DNA of 64,000 nucleotides from an uncultured Nitrososphaerales archaeon (GTDB lineage: Archaea > Thermoproteota > Nitrososphaeria > Nitrososphaerales > Nitrososphaeraceae), in NCBI GenBank assembly GCA_963713605.1, contig CAVQMO010000010.1, positions 160,001 through 224,000 on the forward strand, read 5' to 3'. The notes under the pieces were generated by a model that searched no databases, was not told where the DNA came from, and saw nothing but the letters and a program-made list of their open reading frames with translations. Numbering within the stretch: the stretch's first letter is position 1; every line of letters begins with the position of its first letter. The translations under genes and the position numbers were made by a program. This document shows, piece by piece, positions 48,256 to 64,000 of this stretch.

Positions 48256-48540
48256 TTAGAAATTCTTTTTTCCTCTTAATAGATGGAGCAAGAGATGTGC
48301 ATCCACTCAAGTACATTTTGGTTCATCAAAGCCCATTACTACTGAAAATAGGATTGACTATTACAAACGGTACCTTAAAGAAGATATTCTCAATGACATA
48401 GAAAGGCTTACTTTTGAAAATAAGAAAGAATGGATCCCGATTTCGGGGAATGCTGGAGGTGTCATTGTACCAAAAGCTTGAATAAGGTTTTCCGACGTCT
48501 CAACCATACTCCCCATTGTTTCCACCGAGTTGTTCGCGCC

Positions 48541-48727
48541 TGGATCCCCGATGAGCAGTGCGCCTTGTGAACTACGCTGGGCATCAAAACTCGCACGCGT
48601 CATTCTGGGCCATCCACGTTCCTTCCCAATCTCGGTCATGGTATGTGCATAACCTGGAAAGAAGTCATCGACTGTCTCTTGCGTACTTTCTGCGATGTAG
48701 CCTAGCGAATGAATGCCTACTTTCGAT
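48541..48727 (-). pseudogene. Duplicated internal fragment of the LLM oxidoreductase
   Basis: 48541-48660 identical to 49523-49642; next ~65 bp diverged (KVGIHSLGYIAESTQETVDDFFPG). Confidence 0.85.
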
Positions 48728-49339: not shown

Positions 49340-50383
49340 CTACATTAACTCGATGTAGCTTTCATTCACTTTACGAAGTGTAGGAGCGACGCGTGTACCT
49401 ATTAATTCGGTAGCTTGCATCAGCTTTTCGTGAGGCAATGAGGCAGGGTTCATCATAAAAGTGATTCGGGAGACGCCGCCAAGTGCTTTGCTGTGTCTAA
49501 TGATCTTCTCGACTACCTCATCTGGATCCCCGATGAGCAGTGCGCCTTGTGAACTACGCTGGGCATCAAAACTCGCACGCGTCATTCTGGGCCATCCACG
49601 TTCCTTCCCAATCTCGGTCATGGTATGTGCATAACCTGGAAAAAAGTCTTCGACTGCCTCCTGTGTACTCTTAGCGACATAACCTAGCGAATGTACACCT
49701 ACTTTCAATTGATCAGCTGAATGACCAGCTTGCCTTCCAGCCTCTCTATAGAGATCTATAAGTGGCCGGAACCTGTGTGTTTCGCCACCTATAATCGCAA
49801 CCATCAATGGAAGTCCTAGGAGACCTGCACGGACGAATGATTCTGGGGTTCCGCCAACGCCTATCCATATCGGAAAAGGATTTTGTAAGGGTCTTGGATA
49901 GACTCCCTGGCCACTCAGTCTCGGCCGATATTTGCCAGACCAATGCACATGCTCATTATCACGAATCTTTAGTAGTAAATCGAGCTTCTCTGTAAAAAGA
50001 GAATCATAGTCTTCCAACCTAAATCCGAACAGAGGAAATGCTTCAATAGATGAGCCGCGGCCAACAACCATTTCAGCCCGACCTTGTGATAGAAGATCCA
50101 AGGTTGCGAATTCTTGAAACACCCTTACTGGGTCGGCAGCACTTAATACAGTTACAGCACTGGTAAGTCGTATATGTTTAGTTCGTGCTGCTGCCGCGGC
50201 TAGGACGACAGCAGGAGCTGAATCTAGGAATTCTCGACGATGATGTTCGCCGACACCAAACACATCTAGCCCAATTTGATCGGCATATTCAATTTGTTCT
50301 ACCAATCTTTGCAAACGCTCAGATGGGCTGATTTGGAGGCCAGCGTCATCCCACGCGGCAAAGCTATCAATTCCTACTTGCAT
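49340..50383 (-). CDS. LLM-class flavin-dependent oxidoreductase
   Basis: GVGEHHR, RLTSAVTVLSAADPVRVFQEFATLDLLSQGRAE, GRGS. Confidence 0.92.
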   Translation of the reverse strand: MQVGIDSFAAWDDAGLQISPSERLQRLVEQIEYADQIGLDVFGVGEHHRREFLDSAPAVVLAAAAARTKHIRLTSAVTVLSAADPVRVFQEFATLDLLSQGRAEMVVGRGSSIEAFPLFGFRLEDYDSLFTEKLDLLLKIRDNEHVHWSGKYRPRLSGQGVYPRPLQNPFPIWIGVGGTPESFVRAGLLGLPLMVAIIGGETHRFRPLIDLYREAGRQAGHSADQLKVGVHSLGYVAKSTQEAVEDFFPGYAHTMTEIGKERGWPRMTRASFDAQRSSQGALLIGDPDEVVEKIIRHSKALGGVSRITFMMNPASLPHEKLMQATELIGTRVAPTLRKVNESYIELM

Positions 50384-52648: not shown

Positions 52649-55299
52649 CTAAACAAGAGGCTTATCTTCAGGAACATGTTCTCCGATTATAGTTTTCTCC
52701 CCAGCAATAATATTATTCAAAATTTCTAGTCCTGCATTCTTGTGCAGGTATTCGTTATTGTTTCCACACTTATACGAAAAGGTACATCTTGGGCAACCAC
52801 TTTCATTCCTACACGGACACTCTGATAATACTCTTTGGGCTCTTATCATTGCTTTATCTAGCTTTTCATACAATGTCCTACTCGCACCATTTCCGCCTAT
52901 GCTGCCATCATAAATAAAAATTAGACCAGTCGAACCAATTGAAATACCACCCATGTCTTGTGACGAACCGCCGGTTATCATGATACTTCCTTCTATTATG
53001 ACATGTTCTGTAGCATGGTATCCACTCATTTCAAGATAATCGTCATCCATAGCAGATTCTCCAACATTCTTAGGTTTTGGGGCACGGAAAACTAATCCTT
53101 TTGTAATGAATTTGAACTCTAATGGACTTTCAAGGTATATTCTTGTCCCTTGAGTAACTTCTTTACCTAATTCTATATTCGAGTAACCTGACACCTTCTT
53201 TAAAATCTCCAGCGAACAGTATCTGACCTCCATTCCAAATAAGGTCTTTTGCTCATGAACTTCTAGAATGGTTGGCCACTCATCAACAATTGCCTTTGTA
53301 TAGTATGGATAGTCTCCAGGTATAGCCGCTAACTTTGCGTATGACCCTTTCTCTAGCCTGTTATCTGGATTCTCGAGGTATAGTTTGACAACTTTGTACC
53401 TCTTCCCTCCAAGGAAATATACCGCCTGGTCATGCAACTCTTCTATTGCCTGTGGCATTTGTCGTTCACCAATTTTTTTCTCATTAAAAATTATGTCAAC
53501 TCTAGATCCAATACCTCTAATACTAAAGTTCCATAGTACATTCATTGCTTTGTTAAATTCAGGAACAAACTTTCCTCTTGAGACTTGAACCAATCCGACC
53601 GAAATTAATTTTTGGAGAGTATTCCATAATGGGGATGATTCATTCATTGAGATTGGTTTGTCACATGCCATAGCAAGAACTTGATATTCTTCTACAAAGG
53701 AATTAGTTGGGTCAGTATATGCTATCTCTTGATCTTGTAGATAATCTTCTGGATGGAGCTTATAATATTGACTAATTGGATCGTTACCAAATGCAAGAAA
53801 CGCATATCCTTCTTGTCCATTTCTTGCCGCTCTACCCAACCTTTGAATAAGCCGATTCACTGGGACGATGTCAGATATGATGGCATCTACATCTCCTATG
53901 TCTATCCCAAGCTCTAATGTAGGAGTTGCCGAAATTGCAAGCACCTTATTATTTCTAAATAGATCTTCAACTGATTTACGTTCCGATGGTAGCAAACCTG
54001 CTCTGTGAACTCGTATGTGGTTTCCTTGTTTGGCTGAATAGAATGCCAAAAGTTCTGATCCTAGATGTGACTTGCTGAAAGCTATAGTTTTATGATTCGT
54101 TGTGATCAATCTCTTTAATATATCAAGCATCAGAGATCTCTGCGAATGTAATGATGGAAATATGATTACTAGATTGATTTTACCCTTTCTACCTTTGCCA
54201 TAAATTATACTTAGATCCCTCCCAAAGAGGGAACTACAGAATTCATGTGCATTTGATAGGGTGGCAGAAGGCAGCAATGATCTGAAGTTTCTGCTTTGTA
54301 GCGCTTGATGTCATTCTCTCGAGTCTTTTTATGATATAATGAACATTGGCCCCAAATACTCCAGTATATACGTGAGCTTCATCTACAACCAGAAATTTGC
54401 AAGTCCTTAATAGGCGGGAGAAACTTGTCTTATGGAGAAGATGGTAATGGATTACATCAAAGTTGGTGATTATGATCTCCGGGATCAGCTCCCTCGTAAT
54501 TAGTTCCCTTTCAGATTTTGAAGTATCTCCGTCAAATATACCTACATTTAGGCCCACTGAACCAGCAATTTGCATTATTTTTGGAAGTTGATCCCTTGCC
54601 AATGCCTTGGTAGGATATACAAATACAGCAAACACCTTTCGTCTATTTAGTTTTGTTTCTGGTCTAAGAGATGAAAAATGTGCTCGCTTCAACTGAAATT
54701 CTCTGTACTATGGGAATACAAAAGGCCTCAGTTTTACCGGACGCGGTCGGCGCAACAATAACCACATCCCTTCCCTCTAGTATTTGGAGAATTGATTCCT
54801 CCTGGAACTTGTAAAGTCTTTGAATATTTCGCTGGTATAGACTAGTGACGATTCCCTCATCGATGTTAAGGAATTTAAATTCACGACCAGCTTCTGGCTC
54901 AGGTTCTTCTAGGATTATAAAATCAACTATATAATCTCTCTTTGACCTCAATACGTTTTCAAGTAATTTATTGCCCACCGCATCATTTTTACGGATTAAC
55001 TCTTTTATCTCAGATAATGGGCGTACGAGTCTTTCTTGCTCTATTACCGACTCCAAATCTTGTACTTGGTCAACGTGTCCATTATCATACATAGAAAGAA
55101 ATTCCAAATAAGCTTCGTCCTGTTCAGCCATAGATGGAACGATACCACATATGCTACATTTGGAGCAAGCAAAGATCAATCGACCATTATAAATCGTATT
55201 AGCATTAATAGAATTAACGTCATTACATTTAGGACACCTATAACCGATAGACACATATTGAACATGCACTCCCAAGATATATCTCTTCTCAATATGCAC
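52649..55299 (-). CDS. DEAD/DEAH helicase with DUF1998 (Hrq1/MrfA-like), two frameshifts
   Basis: APTASGKTE, YPTKALARDQ, VDEAH, SATL, TPTLELGIDIG, QRLGRAAR, C-terminal CPC...GCPRC; N-terminal CPKC..CSKC. Confidence 0.9.
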
Positions 55300-56849: not shown

Positions 56850-57459
56850 ATCTGATAAATCCTTTTATGATCATGAACCAATCTATCTTATATTTTATGA
56901 TTATATAGTTCTTTGTAAAATATCGTTCAATTTTTGACCGCGTACCGTGTCCATCCTCGAAATATGAATTGCTATAGGTTATGAATGTACGGTAGGGATA
57001 AGGTTAGTGATAACTTTCATCAAATCCTAAATAGCATGACAAGTGCAAAGCGCTACTAAAATCTGTACAAGTAGTAGGCACAGCCCGAAGGAAGAAGTGA
57101 GGCATAAAGAAATTCCAGTACTGATATCGCCATGGACATGAATTAGAAGTAGGAATTGAAATCTTTCAAGACTTCGAATATGGATTTAATTGAACGAAGG
57201 AATATGACAGTGTTGGAGGAAATCTTCTAGTTGCTCATAATTTTCTAATTCCAGGTATTTTATTAAACAGTCTACGGTGTTGTCATCATATTCAGTATTC
57301 TTGTACTTTTCTTTACCCCATACAACTTGAGTATGCTCTGATCTATCATCCAAGCTGGTAATTCTTAGTTTCCATTATGACAGTAATCTATAAATTGGTT
57401 TCTAGTTTGCAAATCCTATCTATAAATAAATGAATGTTGACTAGGTATCGTGCACGTAA

Positions 57460-57692
57460 GTGTAAGTACGTCATCGCCTGCAGCAGGCAGCAGCAGCAAC
57501 AGCAATAGAAGAAAAGGAAAGAAAAGAAGGACAATCCAAGTCATTTCTTAGGTACAAAGTGACTACCGGAAGCCTATCTGATAGGACTAAACTGGCATAT
57601 ACTTACCACATTAACGAGTTCTTGGCACACTATCGAATAACCGACTTGCAGCCATTGAAGGAGTATAGTCCCAAAGTCTTGAAGCAGATGGT
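57460..57692 (+). pseudogene. Tyrosine recombinase/integrase N-terminal fragment
   Basis: Manual translation SLSDRTKLAYTYHINEFLAHYRITDLQPLKEYSPKVLKQMV, resembling the core-binding region of archaeal integrases; catalytic domain absent. Confidence 0.45.
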
Positions 57693-58595
57693 TAGTACAA
57701 ATTTGTACACCCTTGGGACGGGTGAATAATTCGCTTGCTAAAGAAGCTAATACATGAGTTTCGAATTTTTACAAGATTGAGACAATTCTAGAAAAGGCCC
57801 CAGAGGACGTTAAGAATAGGGTACTATTAGGCAGAACACGTGTCGATAAGGCATACCGCAAAATGCAGTTGGAGAAAAGCTCGAGCAGGAAGCTTTTGCT
57901 GAAGCAGGCTTTTTAATTGAATCTAATAATTTCAGCTACGTGCAAGAACAAGAACATCAAACCCTATCAACTCATCGAAAGTGACTTTCGTGAGAAAGGC
58001 AAAGAGATAGAGTCCAATTCCATCTCTTTAGTCATTGTTGACTCGATGTATTACGAAAATACTTTGTATTTACACAAAGAATATTATGCAGAGCTTGTAG
58101 AACGGGTATTAACGGACGGAGGTAGTTATGCAGTCTACCTGGTTCCTCAATGGAAAGAAGGTATAGATTCGTGATTATATTACTCAGAATAGTAACTTAA
58201 AGGAGTGCGGAAGTTGGACGGTAAAAATGCAAGGCCAATTCGGAAGCGACCATAATATGCGTATGTTTTATCAAACAAAAGAAATTGGTTGGTATTGCAA
58301 GGGAGATAAACCAATCTGCCCTTTGTTTAAGGAAGGTAGAAAGATGTTTAATCTTATCAAGTGAAAGACACCAGATAAGCGACGAAATAAATATACTCAG
58401 AATCCAATCGATTATGAATATATCATTAAGAATTTAACAGCTCCATACGATAGAGTTTTTGACCCTATGATGGGAGAAGGAACTACAGGCGTAGTTGCAT
58501 TGAAACTCAAACGCAGATTTATTGGAATTGAAATAAATCCTGAAACAATGAAGCTTGCAAAGGCCAACATAAGTCTAAACCGAAACTTAAGCTAA
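57692..58595 (+). pseudogene. ParB-like HTH fused to N6/N4 DNA methyltransferase, degraded
   Basis: LGRVNNSLAKEA...KIETILEKAPEDVK...VDKAYR; LIESDFRE...SISLVIVDSMY (DPPY-like, degenerate); VFDPMMGEGTTGVVALKLKRRFIGIEI; in-frame stops. Confidence 0.7.
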
Positions 58596-59076
58596 CTTAG
58601 GACAAGGAGAAAATTCAGATTTCAAAAAGCTAATTCAGCTACGGTGAGCTAAATTTAGCTCGTATAATAGAATATGGTGGTAAGTAGAAGAGTTAGAAGA
58701 GCCGTCGCCTATGTAACTGCTGTAAGGCAACCTCCTCCAGTGGAATAATAAGTAGTAGTAGGCGACAGAGTAAATTGGTGACTGACCCCCGAACTAGAGA
58801 ATATCTTAGACAACTCGCAAAGACTGTAGAGTGTGCTGAAGAGATATGTCAATGTTCACATTGCAGTGTTGAGCGATTGAAAAAGCAAATTACAGCAGAC
58901 GATAAGGATGGAGTCCTTCAATATTTAGGTACGAAAATGTTTGGCGGTACTGATGGTGGAAGAAAAGGTAGGAATTATCCATCTGGGTTTACGACAGAAT
59001 TATGCAAGGATCCAATTTTCTGGAAGTCATGAAGAATCTTTTAGAAAGTTCAAAGTTCAGAAAAGGCTCAAATTGG

Positions 59077-59217
59077 AATTCTGATGGTTCCACCGGTGGA
59101 ACCAGCAGAATTGGGTTTCCTGCCTTTTCTAGATCCTGTTTGACTTGAATAGTACCAATTTGGAATTTCCGCAGTTCTAGGTACCAGAACCACGGGAATT
59201 GGGTTTCCTGCCTTTTC
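59077..59217. repeat. Two diverged units, 88-bp period, each a 36-37-bp palindrome followed by identical GGGTTTCCTGCCTTTTC
   Basis: AATTCTGATGGTTCCACCGGTGGAACCAGCAGAATT (59077-59112) and AATTTCCGCAGTTCTAGGTACCAGAACCACGGGAATT (59164-59200). Confidence 0.85.
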
Positions 59218-59275: not shown

Positions 59276-60300
59276 CTAACGTAATTTCCTTTCATCTTTA
59301 GCCAGTTTCTTCATATCTTTATAATCAAATTGGACCAAATCTTTAGATGATTTGATTCGGCCTCCGTATTCTCCCGTTTGTACTAATTCTGCGCTGCCAT
59401 CGGGATAATGCTCGACGTTATAAGTACTGATGGATACCTTAACGACTTCTTCTTCAGAACATAATCTATCTATGGTGCTCAGGGGTGTACCGAGGAAGCA
59501 GATAGTCATTCTTTGCTAGTGCGCTTTTTCTTACTTTTACTCTTATGATTGTCACTAGTAGTAGTATTGTTGTTGTTATTACTATCGCTAAGGGCTGTGT
59601 CAATCATGCCCTTCACTTCTTCCGCGGTGACATTTCGCTGCGGTATGTTATTATTATTACCGCCTTCCAATTTCTGCCTTAATGCTAATGCTAACTGTTC
59701 CTCGTCCTTCTGTAATCCATTCTCGTTAATCCATCTTCTTCGTTGTACATCATTTGGAATTGTACCAAAATGGTTCAGTTCGTTATATTCACCATCCCTA
59801 AGATCTTCAAATGTTTCAACTGATATTCTAATACCATTTGAGTGCTCCACTGAAAAATGAGCAGACTGCGAAAGGCCAATTTGCCGTAGTTCATTCATCT
59901 TTTCTTTGGAGAAAGGGATTGAGTAACCGGTTTCAATATTTGCAATGTCTGATACCTCTCGCTGCCTCCTTACCAAAGGCGACCTGTTTTATAGTGTAAA
60001 TAGCCTTGGGTATCGGAAACTTTCCTACGTCGGAGCGGAAAAAATGTTTCACATTCAGTGCTTCATCCAGTCTGTACGAACTCTCTGAATAAGTTATGAA
60101 TTCCTTTTCGCCAGTTTTCACACGTTTGATATCGACTATTTCCTTTTCTCGATGGTGCGTATACTTTTCTAAATCTTCAGTCCTGGTATTTCTGATGTAC
60201 TCTTCATATAATCGGTCAAATACTTCTCTGGGTACTCCAGGCCTAATTTGGAAAATTCGGCTTCGCCCTCTGGTGATTGAATAAAACCGTTTACCATATC
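59276..60300 (-). CDS. Element-associated hypothetical proteins (59276..59509 and a frameshifted gene ~59506..60300)
   Basis: Consecutive minus-strand ORFs 59933..60121 and 59506..59976 appear to be one broken gene. Confidence 0.45.
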
Positions 60301-60821: not shown

Positions 60822-61278
60822 ATGAATTCAGAAGTTGAACGTTTGCGGTGGAGGAGAAATAAAATCTTAGAACTATCTAGCGAAGGACATAATCAACATC
60901 AGATAGCCTCTATACTGCAGGTAGCACTAGGCACTGTAAACCGGGATTATCAAATACTGAAGAAGTTAGCGCAGGCCAACATATCCAAGTACCATCAATG
61001 AAACTCTGCCATTGGAATATCAAAAGTGTATGGTAGGCCTAGATGCAATACTTGTGAAAAGCTGGGCAATGGCAAATGATTCTTCAGCAATACACCGGGA
61101 TAAACTACAGGCCTTATCAATTGCAATGCAGGCCTATGAAATGAAGTTAGAATTGTTATCATCGGCCAATGTAGTTGAGAGGGCCGTACATTTTGTAAAT
61201 AAACATAGGGGTTTAACAGTACAAAATAGGGAAGTAGTCATAGATGGTACTACAAAATCTCTCGCGAATCCTAGATAA
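60822..61278 (+). CDS. HTH protein, putative terminase small subunit; frameshift near 60992
   Basis: RWRRNKILELSSEGHNQHQIASILQVALGTVNRD (HTH) then helical ETLPLEYQKC...; overlaps start of the terminase large gene. Confidence 0.6.
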
Positions 61279-62726
61279 GTACGAATTTCAGCTCGGTAGT
61301 ACCTAATCCAGAACAATTTGAATTACTGAAGGGATTACCGTTTTATAACTGGTCACTAAGTGACCAAAGCAAGGACTTCAATCATGTCATAGGTTTACCT
61401 GAAAAGAATGGGCAACCTATGCCATTATTTGACTATGAAAAGTTGCTATTTGACACTTTACAGTCAAATAAACACGTCTGGATAAAGAAGAGCTACAGGC
61501 TTAGGCGTAACTGAATTTATGCTGAGATATATGGCCTGGTTATGCTTTTTTGAGAAAAGCGCTCAAAATACTCAAATGTGCATTGTGACAGGGCCCCGTA
61601 TTGAGCTAGCGATTACACTAATTGACAGAATGAAAAATCTATTTAGGCAAAATATAGATCTCAAAAACACTATTTTTGACACAAAGGAAACTGTCATTGA
61701 ACTCAATGGTGTGCATATTGAGGCCTATCCATCACACCATTTAGACGCGATGCGAGGACTCAAAGATGTGTCATTCATATATTTAGATGAAGCAGACTTC
61801 TTTCCACCTGGTCAGCAGCAAGATGCTCGTGACGTTAGTGAAAGGTACATTGGTAAATCAAACCCTTGGATCGTAATGGTATCCACACCAAATGCTCCAG
61901 AGGGATTATTTGAAAGGATTGAACAGGAGCCCGAAAGTTCATGTCTTTACAAAAGATTATTTCTAGATTATACTTACGGCCTTGACCGCATCTACTGTGA
62001 GGCAGAGATTGCCGCGGCCAAAGCCTCACCTTCATTTGAAAGAGAGTATAATTTAAAATATCTTGGGTTAATTGGGAACGTTTTCCATACCAGAGATATT
62101 GAGGCAGCGATTGAGAAAGGTAGGATTGGACCGACCGTCGGTCCAAACTCATACTACTACACTCAAAAATCTGTGGGCCTAGATCCCGGGTTCGGTAGTA
62201 GTAATTTCGGTGTGTGTATAACTGAGTTGAGAGACGGATTAATTCATGTCTTGCATGCTTCTGAGCATCATAGACCATCATTCAATCAGATGATCGAGAT
62301 CACAATTGACTTGCTCGATAAATATAAAGTAACATTTGAAGGCCGCTCAAGGATATTTGTAGACGGTGCTAATCCATCCTTCATTAGAGCATTGAAGGAA
62401 AGATTGGATGAAGATACAAATTTTGAACATATTACGGCTTACCTTAAGAAACAATATTCATCAATTTATGATCTGAAATTCCTCGAAGAAAATATGATGG
62501 TGATCCCCGTCCCGTTCAATAAGGAGCATAAGCACATGCTGGCCCACTGCAAGGCAATGATGGATATACCACGAATGGTCAAGTTGCTATTAATCCTAAA
62601 CATAGCAAATTAATTACTGCGTTGCGTACCGCTGTGGAGAATGGGGAAGGTATGCTAGATAAGGAAGCAACGAGTCATGATGATTGTTTCGATGCTTTCA
62701 GGATGTCGATGTTATTCTGGCACTAA
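61244..62726 (+). CDS. Terminase large subunit-like ATPase-nuclease, frameshifted
   Basis: Walker A-like WIKK.ATGLGVTE, Walker B FIYLDEADF, coupling motif VSTPN, RNase H-like GLDPGFG, FVDGAN, HDDCFDAFR. Confidence 0.8.
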
Positions 62727-62930: not shown

Positions 62931-64000
62931 ATGGCGACAACCTTGACTAAACCGCCTCGCTCTAGCTGGTCTAATTTCTTTCATGACCTCGTAACTGTAG
63001 ATTTTCATCAAACAGATATCAACACTGGTGTGAGGATTGCCGCAATATTGGTAATCATAACAGTAGTAGGGTTGATCACCGGCCATGCTGCTGAGTCAGG
63101 TCTTGTCACGTTAGGAACATTGTTTGTGCTGATAGTAGATCAACTTCCTCATAAAGGTACGCGAACACGCTTCCTGCTGACAGTTTCCATACTATGGGCA
63201 TCAATTTTCGCCATCGGCATGGTCATAAGCATGAGCGATAACCTTGTCACTACCGCTCTGTGGCCTTGGATTATTCATCATAGCATACTTCACGGTATAT
63301 CCAAAAGCCTTCGGGACCATGTATTTAGCCAGCTTTATGTATGTCGTTGCAATTAGTTCTCAAGGTGCTACCCTACGCTCTAGCTGGCCAGAGCTTCTTG
63401 CTAATTTTTGTAGGTGGACTGTGGGGTATAGTAGGTGGCATCATCTTTCTGGCCCGTAAAACCCCGAAGCAACAAAGTACTGTAACAGCAGATCCTATCC
63501 AAGAACCTCTTCAACCTCAGTTGACCTGGCAAGACAGATTCAGACCTCTGACAAGCAATCTATCCGTTCACTCTAAACATTTCCAATATGCAATCTTTTT
63601 TGCAATTACAGGTGCAGTTGGCATGCTGATTATTCAATGGTTTAAGCTACAGGAGGGAGACTGGGTTTTGATATCCGTAATAGTCATACAGTCAGTGATA
63701 TCATATTCGGAAATTTCTTTGACTCTTAGAAAAGTAGTCCACCGTATTGTAGGTACTATAATAGGTGGAATAATCGCCCTGATAATAATTGAGAGTGTTT
63801 TTCAAAATATATGGTTACTGTTTTTATTATTCCTCATTTTCACAGTCACTTGCGCCTCATTCGCAAAGATGACAAAAAAGAATTACGCCTTTTTTGTCAT
63901 CTTTATGACCGTTACATTACTTCTTTTTGAAGAAATCTCATACCCAACAACAGACCCGACAGCTGCACCTTTAGAAAGGATCCAGAACATTTTCATAGGT
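62931..64000 (+). CDS. FUSC/aromatic-acid exporter-like membrane protein, frameshifted, runs off window end
   Basis: Many TM segments; HFQYAIFFAI, WVLISVIVI, HRIVGTIIGG, KKNYAFFVIFMT, ERIQNIFIG. Confidence 0.7.

Follow-up and report, generated by a model that had tools for sequence, protein, structure and literature searches.

The terminase gene pair in the stretch of DNA analyzed here (the window, 64,000 nucleotides, G000:C10:160001-224000 of a 4.09-Mb assembly with 15 contigs and 87% completeness) lies in an insertion of about 7.4 kb, and the locus is very probably an integrated element without capsid genes, present as a decaying copy. It belongs to a large, apparently undescribed family of capsid-less elements from Nitrososphaeraceae, ammonia-oxidizing archaea of soil, whose large terminase gene (terL) is represented in this genome mainly by short 3' pieces, here called tails. 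The whole is best explained by a site-specific, capsid-less satellite element, the tails being left by cargo delivery and loss of the backbone; we give this reading a probability of roughly 0.6. The interest of the locus lies in the element family and its footprints more than in the copy in the window.

Genomic Organization of the Insertion

Table 1. Features of the insertion (window positions, unless a contig is given).
Feature	Position	Strand	Evidence or remark
Left attachment core, ATAAATTGGTTT (12 bp)	57390..57401		Direct repeat
Tyrosine integrase, 5' stump	57559..57729	+	tblastx/blastx matches to other integrases
N6/N4 DNA methyltransferase pseudogene	57745..58595	+	Pfam N6_N4_Mtase, E-value 2e-14; PHROG methyltransferase, weak; three-frame translation
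Small ORF common to another family element	58775..59032	+	55% over 38 aa to an ORF of the G008:C315 element
Imperfect palindrome and 31-bp direct repeat	59059..59217		
77-aa ORF typical of these elements	59276..59509	-	62% and 42% to ORFs adjoining terL in G010 and G008
Broken gene	59506..60290	-	PHROG 21579, E-value 0.0015; second copy beside terL tails at C10:1116541
Small-terminase-like HTH gene (terS-like)	60822..61278	+	Frame change near 61000; hhalign against viral genes
terL, large terminase gene	61244..62726	+	Three break sites, no in-frame stop
terL 3' tail	62600..62726	+	Segment kept at 75 places in the genome
FUSC-family membrane gene, split	62931..64000, on to C10:224084	+	Pfam FUSC_2, E-value 4e-17
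Right attachment core, identical ATAAATTGGTTT	G000:C10:224787-224798, 0.8 kb past the window end		Direct repeat

The length of about 7.4 kb follows from the 12-bp repeat at 57390 and C10:224787 and from two relatives, whose sequence resumes at the latter position. In G001, G008, G010, G011, and G013 the msrB-side flank is joined to sequence at C10:224787-225330 and the insertion is absent; in G008 and G013 the left flank runs directly into the repeat copy at C10:224787. These make five empty sites among six informative relatives. In the sixth, G005, the site is occupied by an insertion that begins with this integrase, and there (G005:C697) the first 45 residues of the stump extend into a long frame for the enzyme. 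The integration site of the window's copy is not a tRNA gene. Exact attachment repeats were not found around six other element regions that were checked, nor around a further set.

Concerning the gene content, the copy in the window is without a primase/replicase module. The palindrome and 31-bp repeat are possibly an origin or an operator. The FUSC gene, previously regarded as a host-type gene about 200 bp after terL, does start 205 bp past the terL stop, but it lies inside the insertion, between terL and the right attachment repeat, and not in flanking host DNA; it is cargo of the element. A second unit of tail and FUSC gene, 80% identical over 1.45 kb, is located at C1:671332. At G000:C3:84734-86088, terS and a short 5' piece of terL are joined to a FUSC 3' end that is 98% identical to the one of the element in the window; this is a sister element with a different deletion. 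Two other repeated sequences border the ends: a small ORF adjoining the attachment core (57186-57390) belongs to a family present in many copies across the genus, and a sequence of about 460 bp just inside the right end (G000:C10:224237-224700) has many genomic copies. Elsewhere in the window, an oxidoreductase-like gene (48361-48639 and 49340-50383) has a duplicated C-terminal piece about 1 kb downstream.

The Terminase Genes and Their Decay

The terS-like gene overlaps terL by 35 bp, as proposed in a first-pass annotation made from the sequence alone, and all the motifs named there for terL were found (KK/ATGLGVTE, LDEAD, STPN, DPG, DGA, and HDD). The main piece of terL matches the PHROG terminase large subunit (E-value = 6e-16). 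Modeling, a check recommended at the same time, agreed: the model of an intact TerL homologue (mean pLDDT 74) matches the large terminases of T4 (gp17), D6E, Sf6, and HK97, and its nuclease part matches the G20c and SPP1 nuclease domains. Both genes are real and the fold is confirmed.

The breaks of terL are found at about 61304, 61490, and 62565-62570, one of them interrupting the Walker A motif. Their description as indels only was accurate, since no in-frame stop is present, and needs the correction that the terS-like gene is broken too; conversely, the in-frame stops reported for the methyltransferase exist, together with frame changes. The selective retention of terL that had been deduced from this difference is unsupported, because frameshifts destroy a protein as surely as stops do. 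As judged from contigs rather than reads, terS-terL carries five extra bases at four sites in 1.9 kb, every break being an insertion, against nine frame changes in 48 kb (43 genes) for conserved genes of the same assembly, i.e., about ten times their frameshift density. Three near-identical sister proteins (same 90% cluster, other assemblies) are each truncated, at other places, and the last terL break is read through in two of them. A 151-nt record, otherwise identical, has a gap across 61456-61607, and this one short record suggests that one break may be absent from a near-identical strain. Some of the breaks may be assembly errors, given that gap and the clear indel noise of the assembly; a helicase-like gene (DEAD/H type by sequence reading) at 52649-55299, split over three frames, also indicates indel errors. 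None of the read runs listed for this DNA contains more than 0.17 of its words, and no RNA run is among them. Whatever the terL breaks, the integrase is a 170-bp stump, so the element is unable to excise itself. The terS-terL copy of the window is probably not alive, and no clearly intact terL was found in this genome.

The TerL Family and Its Proposed Lifestyle

Homology searches retained 3966 TerL homologues out of 6610 candidates, the intact ones being about 495 aa long and those with a name belonging to Nitrososphaeraceae. terL was detected in 25 of 41 genomes (13/13 of the genus, 22/24 of the family, and 2/16 of other families). Judged by sequence comparison, the intact terL genes are under purifying selection, with a ratio of second-position to four-fold distance of 0.12 (367 pairs, 59 intact genes). 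The ATPase motifs (Walker A, Walker B, and coupling) are nearly invariant in 32 homologues, in which the nuclease motifs DPG, DGA, and DD are also conserved. Walker A usually has a lysine where TerL here has V or I; an inactive motif was considered and rejected, because the same lysine-less variant, KKATGLG[IV]T, occurs in elements and capsid-encoding viruses alike. One homologue, P0078, has its halves in swapped order and was left out of the TerL profile. Searching PDB sequences with TerL and portal profiles gave nothing significant. Regarding the small subunit, the HTH family alignment (A4) matched the genes upstream of viral terL (hhalign 91.5%, E-value = 9e-7), and terS lies upstream of terL in 47 of 66 loci.

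Among 141 ORFs of 16 loci we identified tyrosine integrases, D5-type primase, MCM, PolB, and host-type genes, so that a replication gene is present in the elements of some relatives. Where at least 5 kb of flank was available, only 10 of 48 loci had an integrase on the upstream side and 10 of 51 on the downstream side, and about 12 of 48 had a primase, MCM, or PolB upstream. Decay, short flanks, or narrow profiles may account for these low numbers. At 79 loci, the genes that come first after terL represent 65 families (44 genes on the same strand, 35 on the opposite one), and the 61 of these 79 genes scanned with Pfam include dehydrogenases, regulators, glycosyltransferases, SnoaL, Usp, and similar families; many intact terL genes are directly followed by such host-type cargo. 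In L110, L112, L114, L115, L116, and L027 cargo is also found between terS and terL, some of them with a duplicated terS 3' piece just before terL. L021/L108 (G008:C315) is an element of about 24 kb with integrase, methyltransferase, PolB, MCM, and terS, and with two whole terL genes in tandem with cargo between them.

As for relationships with viruses, 38 IMG/VR loci share 31-51% identity with the family, and in most of them terL is followed by a conserved putative portal gene and a protease/capsid gene; no close member of the elements was among them (best 51%), and IMG/VR scans with single proteins gave nothing. A soil metagenome contig of 19.8 kb, L229, is virus-like, with terS, terL, portal, and tail-like genes. 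Its TerL is 66-68% identical to its nearest neighbors and nests inside the element clade, as seen in one of two quick trees with long branches, from both of which the broken terL of the window was left out (P0001 stood in for it in one only). The L229 portal gene lies 3.7 kb after terL and is of a type different from the nearest-virus profile. It has 69 homologues, some on contigs of 39-52 kb; a profile of this type matched 1 of 121 family genomes (a tally that includes G099) and was not found in genomes of the genus. L229-type viruses are the best candidates for helper or ancestor. Separately, the regions L319-L320 (G016:C18) and L307 look like complete tailed viruses or proviruses, each having portal and capsid-region genes, and their TerL is only about 30-43% identical to those of the elements.

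The layout of the elements is attachment site, tyrosine integrase, small genes, terS, terL, variable cargo, and attachment site, with the cargo starting directly after the terL stop. Intact members are most likely satellites of head-tailed viruses of archaea; the soil viruses that infect these archaea are described as diverse and active in the accessible part of PMC11849493. After excision and replication, the element's own TerS/TerL would select element DNA, which would then be loaded into the procapsid of a helper virus, and the use of helper capsids by intact members is probable. The elements might alternatively be mobile with a terminase that does not serve helper capsids, acting as a decoy that jams virus packaging, or in DNA cutting or pumping through vesicles or cell-to-cell transfer. 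Neither virions nor circles containing an element were seen (38 IMG/VR loci; terminal repeats, none in 158 loci), the purifying selection would fit any function, and most tycheposons spread without packaging genes (10.1101/2020.12.28.424599, in the part available). However, TerL has retained every motif of its ATPase and nuclease in the form known from capsid-encoding viruses, terS is kept upstream, and a portal-encoding virus falls in the same TerL clade, which makes a non-packaging role unlikely.

The terL 3' Tails

A protein profile detected 116 terL pieces at 84 loci of this genome, and the terminase pair is consequently not the orphan that it had been taken for. The DNA profile gave 107 matches. 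Seventy-five of them extend to the 3' end (median 120 bp), and only two of the 107 are near full length; 54 of the 75 tails are 162 bp or shorter. The similarity of the tails stops at the stop codon, and their 5' ends are staggered from 60 to 900 bp, 60 bp being the detection limit. Scanning with query windows, the last 50 residues hit 90 loci, whereas moving the window back by 25 and 50 residues reduced this to 40 and 24, and the N-terminal half gave 5-8; terS gave 14-20 loci and integrase 11-18. When the scan was repeated with 40 terL, 60 terS, and 12 integrase queries, the last bin of terL was hit at 70 loci and its first seven bins at 7-11, compared with 12-26 for terS and 9-16 for integrase, a control limited by its few queries. 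The same bias was observed in five relatives, with 246 matches to the last 50 residues against 53 to the Walker B region. Across 121 family genomes, a single tail query, which under-counts distant subfamilies, matched in 72; each of five genomes of another genus had 15-48 matches, and none of the 14 genomes of a third genus had any. Across 14 genomes of the genus, larger genomes tend to have more tails (rho = 0.67), a correlation among kin that are not independent and to which contamination or fragmentation may contribute.

Tails are also clustered. Within 5 kb we counted 33 pairs of neighbors, against 6.4 expected, of which 29 are co-oriented (16/16 within 2 kb). Neighbors are no more alike than random pairs (73 vs. 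72%) and thus come from different donors; each tail of an array is followed by different DNA, and the same cargo stands between tails at several loci (e.g., a SnoaL-like gene, the family being named by sequence reading). Extra tails lie downstream of long or intact terL copies in 26 cases and upstream in three, 28 of the 29 on the same strand. At C10:1124319 a single integrase has seven tails behind it. The tRNA-Met at C10:850575 is followed by an integrase and, spread across 170 kb (C10:850575-1020062), by about seven partial copies of the tRNA, with two or three tails in some intervals; the region is an island built by repeated integration. Deletion junctions, in which an integrase or terS piece is joined to the 3' part of terL, were identified at C10:465796, C1:715394, and C10:54383. 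The orthologous site of G005 has a 20-residue tail no more than about 200 bp past the integrase (15/20 residues match, read from translation and below the nhmmer cut-off), with other cargo after it.

Several other readings of the pattern were tried and discarded. Local tandem duplication is contradicted by the near pairs of the same subfamily, of which only 1 of 28 exceeds 90% identity; no hybrid of two subfamilies, as a crossover inside the tail would give, was seen by eye. A role of the tail as a one-orientation promoter or terminator was rejected, as the first downstream ORF is on the same strand in 40 cases and on the opposite one in 34. A rise in synonymous conservation, indicating a signal in the tail, appeared with 10 pairs and vanished with 367, and no conserved sequence was found after the terL stop. 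The end-binding protein Ku is encoded by 84 of the 121 genomes of the family; the genome of the window has three matches, and Ku appears twice as cargo near terL. As a cause of the genus pattern it was dismissed, since it is also found in the genus without tails.

The most plausible reading of the tails is that cargo was delivered repeatedly and the backbone then deleted, the tails being the footprints. Elements would stack at shared sites and swap cargo arms; the costly backbone would be deleted and the cargo kept, so that a short terL 3' piece remains ahead of every block of cargo, the cargo being protected and the end of terL next to it spared. All three processes (stacking, arm exchange, and loss of the backbone) seem to be at work; the arrays and junctions are observed, and these causes are what we infer from them. 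Slow erosion is weakly supported: it predicts a link between tail length and decay, and the correlation with decay or conservation is weak (rho = 0.44, p = 0.025 in one subfamily; rho = 0.23, p = 0.11 in the other).

A further possibility is that the terminase itself makes the tails, by cutting near the 3' end of its own gene and holding the downstream end, the upstream side being lost or end-joined to other DNA, so that tail and cargo would be the start of a packaged or repaired molecule. The shortness of most tails, an excess specific to the 3' end of terL with its sharp bias, the position of extra tails downstream of intact terL, the arrays of up to seven behind one integrase, and the presence of Ku are all in its favor. 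In most pac-type viruses, packaging ends lie in or before terS. Synonymous conservation, however, is not raised at the 3' end (0.37-0.44 vs. about 0.48 elsewhere), the 5' ends are staggered down to the detection limit, and Ku is also encoded by 11 of the 14 genomes of the genus without tails. Self-cutting is quite improbable.

Search for Head Genes

A search of the rest of the genome for portal and capsid genes, as had been advised, gave no match with Pfam models or nearest-virus profiles (genome 87% complete); the best E-value of three portal and capsid profiles was 1.7, with the 116 terL pieces as control. The nearest-virus profiles matched none of 25 family genomes, although the same profiles do find proviruses in other families. 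Neither PHROGs on 141 and 53 neighboring ORFs nor Pfam on 61 revealed a portal or capsid family; one ClpP-like protease among the neighbors scanned with PHROGs scored against head-protease families. The expectation under which the element would have been a simple prophage relic, homologues routinely beside portal and major capsid genes, was not borne out: for each profile nothing was found in 157 of 158 loci (several per genome, some on the same contigs as earlier loci, and hence not independent). The nearest-virus profiles matched L307, a provirus outside the element clade, and the portal of the other type is that of L229.

An origin as plain provirus relics, i.e., from integrated tailed viruses whose portal and capsid genes disappeared in place, would agree with the derivation of TerL from archaeal tailed viruses that have a putative portal and a capsid gene after it, with L229 in the clade, and with the broken copy of the window. 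Nevertheless, since the portal lies just downstream of terL in viruses, portal pieces should then outnumber tails, and the three profiles find none in this genome; the insertion has only 7.4 kb between its attachment repeats, and many intact terL genes stand directly before host-type cargo. This origin is largely refuted and very improbable. Least credible of all is a domesticated host function or a gene transfer agent (GTA), which terL in every genome of the genus searched and the GTA-like domestication proposed for other thaumarchaeal loci (PMC6563490, in the part available) would favor, but against which stand a site empty in five relatives instead of a fixed locus, a copy number from 1 to over 100 pieces, most of them broken, the missing capsid module, a tail query without match in 14/14 genomes of one genus, and the fact that no single syntenic, intact, vertically inherited copy was seen across the genus. 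Among the origins first listed for the pair, a simple provirus, a GTA, and a domesticated motor are not supported, while a capsid-less, satellite-like module is supported by the integrase, the attachment repeat, the empty sites in relatives, and the lack of portal and capsid genes in 157 of 158 loci.

Comparison with Known Elements

The closest described element is NitKor-E1 of Ca. Nitrosopumilus koreensis AR1 (Krupovic et al., 2019, PMC6563490), for which the part of that paper available gives only terS, terL, and integrase. It is presented there as a single element, enigmatic and probably a relic, with the statement that a terminase had not previously been identified in non-viral elements. 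The likeness is clear in terS directly before terL, the tyrosine integrase, and no other tailed-virus gene, and by described gene content, not sequence kinship, the element of the window is a NitKor-E1-like cryptic element. In contrast to that description, the elements presented here form a family whose TerL proteins number in the thousands and are subject to purifying selection; the cargo after terL varies, and a genome may have dozens of terL 3' remnants. Beyond NitKor-E1, the literature covered gives no description of the family or of terL tails; subscription journals and supplements lie outside this scope, and the supplement of PMC6563490 may list more.

According to the available parts of PMC10085698 and 10.1101/2020.12.28.424599, PICI and PICI-like tycheposons are likewise small and integrase-bearing, with replication genes and cargo, and form islands by repeated integration that leave partial tRNAs and broken integrases. 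They carry terS or a capsid gene and use the large terminase of the helper, whereas the elements here encode their own terL; integrase and attachment sites are present, and reliance on a helper's large terminase is not. In the same sources PICI-like tycheposons were never seen with cargo, while the archaeal elements combine it with a complete terminase. A tRNA-targeted island is seen at the tRNA-Met of C10:850575, and the window's copy sits at a non-tRNA site. Capsid-forming PICI (cf-PICI; PMC10085698, in part) share terL and terS of their own in a small integrated satellite, but also encode capsid and head-tail genes, of which none were found here. The archaeal satellites pSSVx, pSSVi, and SRCE (10.1101/2025.02.15.638363, in part) have an incomplete virion module including a packaging-type ATPase; they differ in being plasmid-derived, in parasitizing spindle-shaped viruses, and in having no terminase. 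Head-tailed viruses and proviruses of ammonia-oxidizing archaea (L041-L078, L229, and L307) share the TerL family, the Walker A variant, and the upstream HTH gene, yet retain portal and protease/capsid genes downstream. Bacterial parallels may exist, as 8% of VEIMEs encode terminases (PMC12822802, in part). The family most likely works like a PICI-type satellite, yet it belongs neither to PICI nor to cf-PICI; neither a portal nor an HK97-fold major capsid gene marks it as a head-tailed provirus (genome 87% complete), and the empty site in relatives and the lack of head genes separate it from GTAs.

Significance for the Biology of Nitrososphaeraceae

The 3'-end bias of terL remnants, their co-oriented arrays, and the recurrence of the bias in five relatives are new here. 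In the part of PMC7603488 available, the genome expansion of Nitrososphaerales is put down to gene transfer followed by duplication, and the words terminase, virus, and transposase are absent from its main text. terL tails offer a marker for counting accessory DNA that arrived by the route proposed here. At its furthest, the satellite reading would have archaeal satellites with a complete terminase and no shell hijack tailed soil viruses of 40-50 kb and be a main carrier of accessory genes in large-genome Nitrososphaeraceae, with every tail marking one delivery and, in the boldest form, a terminase that cuts its own gene end and drives cargo stacking; we regard this extension as speculative and rather doubtful. 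What had been an enigmatic, probable relic (Krupovic et al., 2019) becomes a large family under selection with a candidate helper lineage and, if its members are packaged by helpers, satellites of tailed viruses would be added to archaea.
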